From sequence record PQ505080.1: a stretch of DNA of 64,000 bases; one strand, given 5' to 3'. Shown one piece after another: positions 11,650 through 12,383 of this stretch. A program made the position numbers and the translations under genes. A model generated the notes under the pieces. It was not told the origin of the DNA. It made no database searches and worked only from the letters and a program-made list of their open reading frames with translations. This DNA is from Escherichia phage HMD-6. Each line of letters opens with the position of its first letter. The first letter of the stretch is position 1.

Positions 11650-12123
11650 ATGGCTATAAACTTTAGACCTACAACAGAGATTGATTTAGCAGGGCACAAC
11701 TTTGTGATCACCCACTGGGGTCCGATGAAAGCAATGAAAAACATGCCTAAAATCGGTAAGATTGTAGCTGTCCCGCTAGGTGCTATCGGTGGATCTATTC
11801 TCTCAGGCGGTCAGAATATGGCAGAGGTCCTTCCTACAGCCCTGGCTTACCTGTTCCAAGAACTTGATGACAACTCTATTGAAGAGTTATTTAAAATCTT
11901 GTTCGAAGATATTACCGTAGATGGTGTGGATAAGCTTAACCCTGATGTTGTGTTTGCAGGGCATCTCCTAGAGATGATTAAGCTGGCAGGTAAGGTTCTG
12001 GAGGTTAACTACGGCTGTTTTTTCACACAAGACGGTTTAGGAAGCCTTCTGGAGATGTTACAGCAGATGGGTATGATTCAGCAGGTGAACAATCTGGATC
12101 AGACTCCGGAAGAGCAGGAATAA
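11650..12123 (+). CDS. tail assembly chaperone (lambda gpG-like role)
   Basis: 157-aa acidic ORF immediately upstream of the tape measure gene; contains the T-run slippery site. Confidence 0.55.
   Translation: MAINFRPTTEIDLAGHNFVITHWGPMKAMKNMPKIGKIVAVPLGAIGGSILSGGQNMAEVLPTALAYLFQELDDNSIEELFKILFEDITVDGVDKLNPDVVFAGHLLEMIKLAGKVLEVNYGCFFTQDGLGSLLEMLQQMGMIQQVNNLDQTPEEQE
12018..12024 (+). other. candidate -1 programmed frameshift site T TTT TTC
   Basis: X XXY YYZ heptamer aligned to chaperone codons Phe-Phe; the -1 frame opens at 12009 and runs to 12383. Confidence 0.35.
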
Positions 12124-12134
12124 GCAAGGTTGTT

Positions 12135-12383
12135 GTGAGAGCCAGTGAGTGGGCAGCCAAGAACAGTTCACTCAACTGGTTCGACTTTCTTTGGTGCAGG
12201 GTGCTCAAGAATTTCAAAGGGGAAAATTTTGAATCGCTAAATCTTGCAGATATGGCGTATTTCCTTAAACTTTGTGAGTATCTTGATATCGAAGAATTCC
12301 TAGATACCGTCCAAAACAGGGAAATGGAGCGGGAGCAGAAGGCTGCCGCAGCTGCTGCGAAAGCTAAGCGCAGGAGAGGATAA
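12135..12383 (+). CDS. tail assembly chaperone C-terminal extension (gpT-like), probably made as a frameshift fusion
   Basis: -1 frame relative to the chaperone gene, open from 12009; weak own start (GTG); basic, Ala-rich C-terminus; ends just before the tape measure gene. Confidence 0.4.
   Translation: MRASEWAAKNSSLNWFDFLWCRVLKNFKGENFESLNLADMAYFLKLCEYLDIEEFLDTVQNREMEREQKAAAAAAKAKRRRG

Follow-up and report, generated by a model that had tools for sequence, protein, structure and literature searches.

Genes and features of the chaperone locus

The window analysed here is a stretch of 64,000 nucleotides from Escherichia phage HMD-6 (PQ505080.1), and all positions given below are those of the window. 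The region of interest is 98.8% identical to Escherichia phage FV3, a Vequintavirus. Matches to it were found in 117 rV5-like genomes (95-99% identity) and in another 71 Vequintavirinae (60-80%), and the phage records similar to the locus number 188 by DNA and 490 by protein. The sheath gene (7985-9361) is followed by the tube gene (9372-9845), and a pair of overlapping reading frames lies between the tube gene and the gene of the tape measure protein (12438..14777, plus strand; 779 aa; Pfam TMP_3, 65.9 bits; annotated in the same way in FV3). The same order is found in FV3 and in all relatives. In the window, a homing-endonuclease ORF sits between the tube and the chaperone genes.

The first member of the pair (11650..12123, plus strand, defined here as the 0 frame) encodes a tail assembly chaperone of 157 aa. 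Its residues 15-129 match the Pfam family Phage_TAC_15 with 84.5 bits (cut-off 22), and it also matches PHROG 3840, which is annotated as 'tail assembly chaperone'; it would represent the short form (TAC-N), analogous to gpG. Protein and profile searches of solved structures with the chaperone gave no meaningful match. The second member (12024..12383, plus strand) is an extension in the -1 frame, comparable to the T part of the lambda system, with 119 codons and a TAA stop. It matches PHROG 10409 alone (function unknown, E = 8.5e-51). No phage tRNA genes were found within the window.

Recognised as consensus matches only, a sigma-70-like promoter and a terminator-like hairpin enclose the chaperone and the extension as one unit. 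The promoter-like site (11578..11606, plus strand) is located 5' of the chaperone gene and consists of TTGACA, a spacer of 17 nt and TAAAAT, with a TG before the second hexamer; with 11 of 12 consensus matches it is the best in the region 9300-12700. Eight of the 14 pairs of the hairpin (12387..12420, plus strand) are G-C; it begins 4 nt past the stop of the -1 frame, ahead of the tape measure ATG, and a T-rich tail comes after it. Located behind the extension and not behind the chaperone ORF, it agrees with one transcript that spans both frames.

A slippery heptamer in phase with the chaperone

A preliminary description of this DNA had proposed a -1 programmed frameshift in the chaperone gene at T TTT TTC, and our analysis confirms its reading of the letters and supports the proposal itself. 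The heptamer T_TTT_TTC (12018..12024, plus strand) is in the phase of the chaperone, whose codons 123-125 read TGT TTT TTC (12016-12024); it comprises the last base of Cys123 followed by Phe124 and Phe125, and is the sole in-phase X_XXY_YYZ heptamer of the chaperone ORF. The -1 frame is open over the whole interval that had been claimed (12009-12383), being bounded by a TAA at 12006-12008 and by the next stop, a TAA at 12381-12383. The site lies at the start of the overlap, where the -1 frame has been open for 9 nt and the chaperone stop is still 96 nt or 32 codons away, a position that had been regarded as atypical. A slip would join the 0-frame codons 1-125 to 12024-12380, and the predicted long form (TAC-NC, analogous to gpGT; 11650..12383, plus strand) would have 125 + 119 = 244 aa with the sequence ...VLEVNYGCFF/HTRRFRK... 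around the junction; the predicted tryptic junction peptide of this fusion is VLEVNYGCFFHTR. The fusion would end just before the tape measure gene, as had been described, with a gap of 54 nt to the ATG at 12438. Support for the proposal as a whole comes from the comparative data presented below, namely the frozen heptamer, the missing starts and the selection on the -1-frame protein.

Heptamers of the XXXYYYZ type are found in frame 57 times in the 19,461 codons of the 53 gene-like ORFs of the window (0.0029 per codon). This corresponds to a chance expectation of about 0.11 in the 38-codon overlap, and the occurrence of the heptamer is non-significant when taken alone. The 119-codon -1 frame after T_TTT_TTC is the longest that follows any of the 57. 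Judging from the comparisons among relatives, chance can be removed as an explanation of the heptamer.

Two other candidates were considered and rejected. Shifts of +1 or -2 lead into a frame that closes at most 7 codons from the chaperone stop. The heptamer G_GGA_AAC near the end of the minus-strand ORF 48298-48801, the second candidate in the window, marks a mere overlap, and the next gene there has its own ATG at 48310.

Conservation of the heptamer among relatives

Homologous loci were obtained by blastn and tblastn searches against phage genomes, by an IMG/VR scan, and by a large protein search combined with contig look-ups. The IMG/VR loci were fetched by a peptide pattern that contains Phe-Phe and are therefore informative on codon choice, not on amino-acid conservation; the loci from blastn, tblastn and the HMM search carry no such preselection.

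We found NNT TTT TTC in all of the loci that keep Phe-Phe (56/56, made up of 51/51 and 5/5 in two sets). T_TTT_TTC is present in the same phase and at the aligned position in six genera of Vequintavirinae (Vequintavirus, Henunavirus, Avunavirus, Seunavirus, Mydovirus and Certrevirus), in the Stephanstirmvirinae genera Phapecoctavirus and Justusliebigvirus, in the Aeromonas Plateaulakevirus, and in IMG/VR and Logan metagenome contigs. Among these carriers, the identity of the chaperone proteins is as low as ~28%. The Stephanstirmvirinae carry CCTTTTTTC, with no G ahead of the run. The codon before Phe-Phe encodes Cys (TGT), Pro (CCT) or Ser (AGT or TCT), and its wobble base is T in all.

Closer inspection of 43 unique ORFs showed that the codons of the heptamer are fixed, Phe124 being TTT in 42/42 and Phe125 being TTC in 42/42, whereas two conserved control Phe codons of the same gene are mixed (23 TTT and 19 TTC for Phe18; 17 TTT and 25 TTC for Phe102). 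The difference between heptamer and control codons gives Fisher p values of 2.7e-7 and 2e-6, which ignore kinship and so overstate the independence of the sequences. Consistent with this, the synonymous-codon identity of 13 Vequintavirinae lies in the range 0.39-0.46 for codons 1-117 (gene body 0.44), rises to 0.68 in codons 118-122 and to 1.0 in the heptamer, is 0.71 in codons 126-135 and returns to 0.43 in codons 136-145.

The Rheinheimera Barbavirus departs from this pattern. Leu-Thr replaces Phe-Phe in its chaperone, which hence has no T-run, and lambda's heptamer G_GGA_AAG is present two codons downstream, within the overlap of this phage.

Evidence for translation of the -1-frame extension

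Across families, the extension consists of a variable Gly/Ser-rich linker and then a conserved domain with the pattern ISKVVxRAxxYAxxNSSLxW(F/Y)D...EYLD. In HMD-6, a low-complexity Gly/Ser/Asp-rich linker at about 12042-12125 precedes the conserved helical domain. The AF2 single-sequence model of the extension is poor (pLDDT 52), with residues 1-37 of low confidence and helices after them, and gives a hint of a disordered linker that precedes the helices. Measured from the T-run heptamer, the -1 frame has 103-127 codons in every lineage, and it has 93 codons in Barbavirus when measured from the substitute heptamer. It ends before the tape measure gene, or before another downstream gene in the Aeromonas and Rheinheimera phages.

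In five lineages (Hena1, Mydo, L026, L046 and PBES02), the -1 frame contains no ATG, GTG or TTG before residue 64-84 of the extension. The conserved domain begins at about residue 35-45, ahead of the first possible starts in these five lineages. Gene callers found no gene between the chaperone and the tape measure genes in two metagenomic contigs (L058 and L059). Given the missing upstream starts, independent initiation of the extension is excluded in these lineages.

Selection on the -1-frame protein is visible from three codons past the heptamer, where an Arg-Phe-Arg motif begins (CGG TTT AGG, 12033..12041, plus strand). Among relatives, the first Arg codon is CGG or AGG although the residue that overlaps it in the 0 frame can be D, G, S, R, K or E. 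The second Arg codon is CGG, CGC, CGT, AGG or AGA, and the residue overlapping it can be G, A, D or V. Since Arg is kept through switches between codon families, it is the -1-frame protein that is under selection here, which locates the shift at the heptamer.

Distance to the chaperone stop

For known tail-chaperone sites, average distances to the 0-frame stop of 26 nt and 36 nt have been reported (PMC10274946), which the 96 nt of the present site exceed. All relatives with the T-run have 20-34 codons between heptamer and stop, and Barbavirus has 19, counted from its substitute heptamer. Across the sequences compared, the long distance is thus a clade-wide trait and not a weakness of the frameshift reading.

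At the heptamer, both the Pfam TAC domain and the last core helix come to an end. Read in the 0 frame, the overlap that follows gives the short form a helix and an acidic tail; read in the -1 frame, it would give the long form a low-complexity linker, a kind of sequence that tolerates double coding. The last 32 residues of the short form, which make up the helix and the acidic tail, are private to it. The long form would thus be more than the short form with an extension, each of the two being predicted to have a C-terminus of its own.

Stimulatory elements

We detected no significant downstream stimulatory RNA in eight homologues, whose fold z-scores range from -1.45 to +1.84. The fold of the alignment has a consensus energy of -7.07 kcal/mol with a covariation term of -0.27, and contains a weak 7-pair hairpin in the dual-coding region. 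No Rfam family was found above threshold; a sub-threshold match to GcvB appears to be due to chance.

Shine-Dalgarno-like sequences stimulate -1 shifts at a spacing of 10-14 nt. A Shine-Dalgarno-like GGAGG (12000..12004, plus strand) lies 13 nt 5' of the heptamer and may act as a 5' stimulator. The element reads GGAGG, GGAGA or GAGGT in most lineages and GAAGA or GAAGT in Mydovirus and Certrevirus; these two genera and the Aeromonas phage lack the element. The codons E-V-N-Y-G (12001-12015) just before the heptamer have raised synonymous conservation although the -1 frame is closed there, and KVLEVNYG(C/P/S)FF is the best conserved stretch of the chaperone. The shift could be tuned by an unrecognised conserved upstream element and not be driven by the bare heptamer, which we regard as unlikely. 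If true, a 5' mRNA-rRNA or nascent-peptide stimulator would be a distinct type of signal, conserved in at least two phage subfamilies, and the same would apply to separate functions of the two C-termini.

Alternative explanations

Transcriptional slippage, in which the RNA polymerase adds one U at the six-T run, would lead to the same 244-aa product. In its favour, a homopolymer is what is conserved, with a length of exactly six T, and RNA stimulators of the kind usual in ribosomal frameshifting were not detected. The conserved wobble T also keeps the length of the run, so that it does not separate the two mechanisms, and because polymerase and ribosome slippage both give ...GCFFHTRR..., with identical protein products, mass spectrometry of the junction peptide cannot separate them either. 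However, known bacterial cases of transcriptional slippage use about nine A or T (PMC5009743), whereas the run is six T in every T-run lineage. The genes of the window, including those of the sheath and the tape measure protein, contain 30 runs of A or T that are exactly six bases long and no longer ones; runs of this length are thus tolerated in essential genes. In addition, the G_GGA_AAG of Barbavirus permits tandem tRNA slippage but not polymerase stuttering, and the TTTTTTG of P2 is regarded in the literature as a site of translational frameshifting. Transcriptional slippage is therefore very unlikely to account for the site.

We give almost no credence to the two remaining explanations, which are about equally improbable. 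If the locus held two separate genes, the extension ORF would start at the GTG at 12135 (82 aa), no fusion would be made, and the heptamer would be an accident of encoding a conserved Cys-Phe-Phe. Many GenBank records do annotate a separate 'hypothetical protein' here, and the GTG has a weak AAGG five bases upstream, but the annotated starts vary by genus and no ATG, GTG or TTG occurs ahead of mid-domain in the five lineages named above. The conserved -1-frame Arg-Phe-Arg and ISKVV are encoded upstream of 12135, inside the chaperone ORF. An accident would also be at odds with the codon choice in the heptamer, which is invariant unlike that of other Phe codons, and with the fixed wobble T before Phe-Phe, where the residue itself varies. 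A shift elsewhere in the overlap could occur by the slip of a single tRNA on an in-phase tetramer, T_TTA or T_TTC, at codons 129-130 (12036-12039). Measurable -1 shifting occurs at many tetramers in E. coli (PMC4066793), GGT at codon 129 is invariant (41/41), and an in-phase Z_ZZN is present in every lineage with Gly-Phe/Leu; Barbavirus has TCT TTC, and the tetramer is absent from the Aeromonas phage. The invariant wobble base of GGT is, however, accounted for by the -1-frame Phe of Arg-Phe-Arg, and the invariance of T_TTT_TTC would be left unexplained. The -1-frame Arg just upstream of the tetramer is kept as CGG or AGG despite a varying 0-frame residue, which indicates that the -1 frame is already being read at that point; on this codon evidence, the tetramer is excluded as the main shift site.

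Comparison with known frameshift systems

The closest model is the G/GT pair of phage lambda (Levin 1993; Xu, Hendrix and Duda 2004; summarised in PMC5009743). As in lambda, two overlapping ORFs are located between the tube and tape measure genes, the second ORF is in the -1 frame without a start of its own, the heptamer is an in-phase X_XXY_YYZ, and a low-level slip is predicted to give a long form with the same N-terminal chaperone domain as the short one. Both gpG and gpGT of lambda are absent from the virion. The present site differs from that of lambda in its heptamer (U_UUU_UUC instead of G_GGA_AAG) and in the distance to the 0-frame stop, which is 32 codons instead of a few, with the 32-aa C-terminus private to the short form. 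The tail here is contractile, and the Phage_TAC_15 protein has no detectable sequence similarity to gpG. It is the distant Rheinheimera homologue that uses lambda's G_GGA_AAG.

P2, with its E/E+E' pair (Christie et al. 2002, per PMC3091744), is likewise a coliphage with a contractile tail, in which the sheath, tube, chaperone and tape measure genes follow one another. Its -1 slip takes place on a run of six T (TTTTTTG) with no downstream hairpin, and the site is kept among relatives despite low protein identity (PMC3091744), as is the case here. The seventh base is C in HMD-6, which puts a Phe codon in the A site, whereas it is G in P2 (Leu UUG). The proteins have 157 and 244 aa compared with 91 and 142 aa in P2, and no sequence similarity was detected between them. 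The P2 frameshift was demonstrated by experiment, whereas the present one is predicted from sequence. Christie and colleagues are said to have put the P2 frameshift at about 10% in 2002.

A study of 2025 (PMC12846349) put forward a conserved GTTTTT -1 site in the chaperones of two groups, Vandenendeviridae (Pakpunavirus Adele) and Andersonviridae, whose head and tail modules are related to those of Vequintavirinae. The chaperone locus of Vequintavirinae and Stephanstirmvirinae was outside the analysis of that study. An invariant poly-T near the end of TAC-N and a -1 frame that is open in every genome are shared with these groups, and in both cases the downstream 'hypothetical protein' would in fact be the C-terminus of TAC-NC. 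Our tblastn searches with the chaperone did not reach Vandenendeviridae or Andersonviridae, and the likeness of the sites is one of description.

Like the A_AAA_AAG of E. coli dnaX, the heptamer is of the tandem-slippage type and is read by a single tRNA species. Unlike in dnaX, there is no convincing 3' hairpin and the Shine-Dalgarno-like element is absent from some genera. The dnaX shift is ~50% and gives a shorter product (PMC5009743), whereas a low-level shift and a longer product are predicted here.

Proposed mechanism

The site is very probably a gpG/gpGT-type recoding site of rV5/FV3-like myophages (Vequintavirus). The anatomy of the locus, its homology to tail assembly chaperones, the deep conservation of the heptamer and the selection on the -1-frame protein are observed; the production and abundance of the fusion protein, the tandem-tRNA mechanism and the binding partners are inferred as follows. 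Most ribosomes would stay in the 0 frame and make the 157-aa TAC-N. A minority would slip on U_UUU_UUC while tRNA-Phe fills the P site (UUU) as well as the A site (UUC); the two tRNAs would step back by one base and re-pair with UUU UUU, and reading would resume in the -1 frame from C12024. The resulting TAC-NC of 244 aa would consist of the 125-residue core, the Arg-Phe-Arg segment, the Gly/Ser-rich linker and the helical C-terminal domain. If lambda G/GT and P2 E/E+E' are a guide, the N-domain common to both forms may coat the tape measure protein while the extension recruits the tail tube protein, and the frequency of the slip would fix a low ratio of long to short form.

UUY codons and all-pyrimidine heptamers are prone to shifting in E. 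coli (PMC4066793), and U-rich heptamers are much less shifty there than A_AAA_AAG (PMC5009743). The efficiency of the shift at U_UUU_UUC may thus be low. By analogy with lambda, where the G:GT ratio is about 30:1, a low efficiency would suit a ratio of the G:GT type.

Annotation and significance

In all 23 GenBank records that we inspected, the extension is either a separate 'hypothetical protein' or a gap of ~300 nt, and none contains a joined CDS. Using the 244-aa fusion as a query against a collection of 5.8 billion proteins, we found no fused homologue among 73 relatives, all of which have 149-159 aa; the short extension ORFs were not returned by this search either. In the literature, we found no account of the heptamer site for rV5-like or phi92-like phages, and the rV5 genome and proteome paper mentions neither a frameshift nor the chaperone.

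The mechanism is textbook, and by its sequence features the site is an unannotated member of the lambda G/GT and P2 E/E+E' class, for which the comparative evidence is unusually clean. It is unlikely to surprise specialists; its use is in annotation and engineering, and in teaching as an example of selection on two frames. Recognition of the site would make PHROG 10409 the C-terminal domain of the long form of the chaperone. Phages of the rV5-like and phi92/phAPEC8-like groups are widely isolated as candidates for therapy and biocontrol, and in their engineering TGT TTT TTC must be spared from codon optimisation and synthetic recoding. The locus also offers a natural example of a slip site that has been frozen over deep divergence and swapped to lambda's heptamer in one lineage, and the selection signatures of the two reading frames are clearly separable at the chaperone locus.

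Codon conservation and candidate heptamers

Immediately upstream of the T_TTT_TTC heptamer (12018-12024), the proposed -1 ribosomal frameshift site in the tail assembly chaperone gene (11650-12123, + strand), codons 118-122 (12000-12015, + strand) showed a synonymous-site conservation of 0.68 versus 0.44 over the remainder of the gene, even though the -1 frame is not open over this stretch. These codons are a possible 5' stimulator, acting either as a Shine-Dalgarno-like element or via the nascent peptide.

Besides T_TTT_TTC, the sole in-frame heptamer of the window with a -1 frame extending far beyond the 0-frame stop is G_GGA_AAC, located in a minus-strand ORF (48298-48801) 15 nt upstream of its stop and followed by 111 open -1 codons. 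We rejected it as a recoding site because the downstream minus-strand ORF (47981-48310) has its own ATG, at 48310, which overlaps the stop of the upstream ORF; the pair looks like an ordinary overlap of neighbouring genes.

A protein database search using the predicted 244-aa fusion of chaperone and -1 extension as query matched only chaperones of about 155 aa and returned none of the extension ORFs of about 80 aa annotated in GenBank, which may be an effect of the word pre-filter or of candidate ranking.

Genes and putative transcription signals flanking the chaperone gene

The tail tube gene and the chaperone gene of the window are separated by a 541-aa ORF (9951-11576, + strand) that matches PHROG 559 (HNH endonuclease, E = 1e-110) and PHROG 3339 (homing endonuclease), together with weak matches to the DUF4379 and DUF723 zinc fingers. 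The ORF is absent from phage FV3, in which the gap between the tube and chaperone genes is just 163 nt, and is probably a mobile homing-endonuclease insertion into the tail operon.

Matches to consensus sequences on the + strand comprise a near-consensus sigma-70 promoter-like site upstream of the chaperone gene (11578-11606) and two strong terminator-like hairpins, one downstream of the tube gene (9862-9885) and one downstream of the -1 extension (12387-12420). Because of this arrangement, the chaperone gene and its extension may form a separate transcription unit, located after the tube gene and before the tape measure gene.

The proposed slip site in related phages

A lineage represented by two contigs of about 116-140 kb from human-gut metagenomes (L056 and L057), and seen on over 100 public metagenome contigs, encodes a chaperone 72-75% identical to that of the window and carries the slip site as TCT TTT TTC, with Ser before Phe-Phe. 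Both L056 and L057 have a DUF723 gene at the equivalent position between the tube and chaperone genes. The lineage is apparently sister to Vequintavirus.

In the record of Salmonella phage GE_vB_MG (MG969411), the 0 frame stays open for 86 codons past the heptamer and the -1 frame reaches a stop after 23 codons, which points to a 1-nt indel some 23 codons beyond the heptamer. Since the record is flagged UNVERIFIED, we treated the indel as a probable sequencing error and set aside a natural in-frame fusion.

The chaperone of Rheinheimera phage Barba5A (MK719709), a distant homolog, has lost the T-run. Two codons 3' of the lost position it carries G_GGA_AAG (1218-1224), by sequence match exactly the slippery heptamer of lambda, and its -1 extension of 93 codons retains the conserved domain. 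This looks like a natural exchange of one slip site for another.
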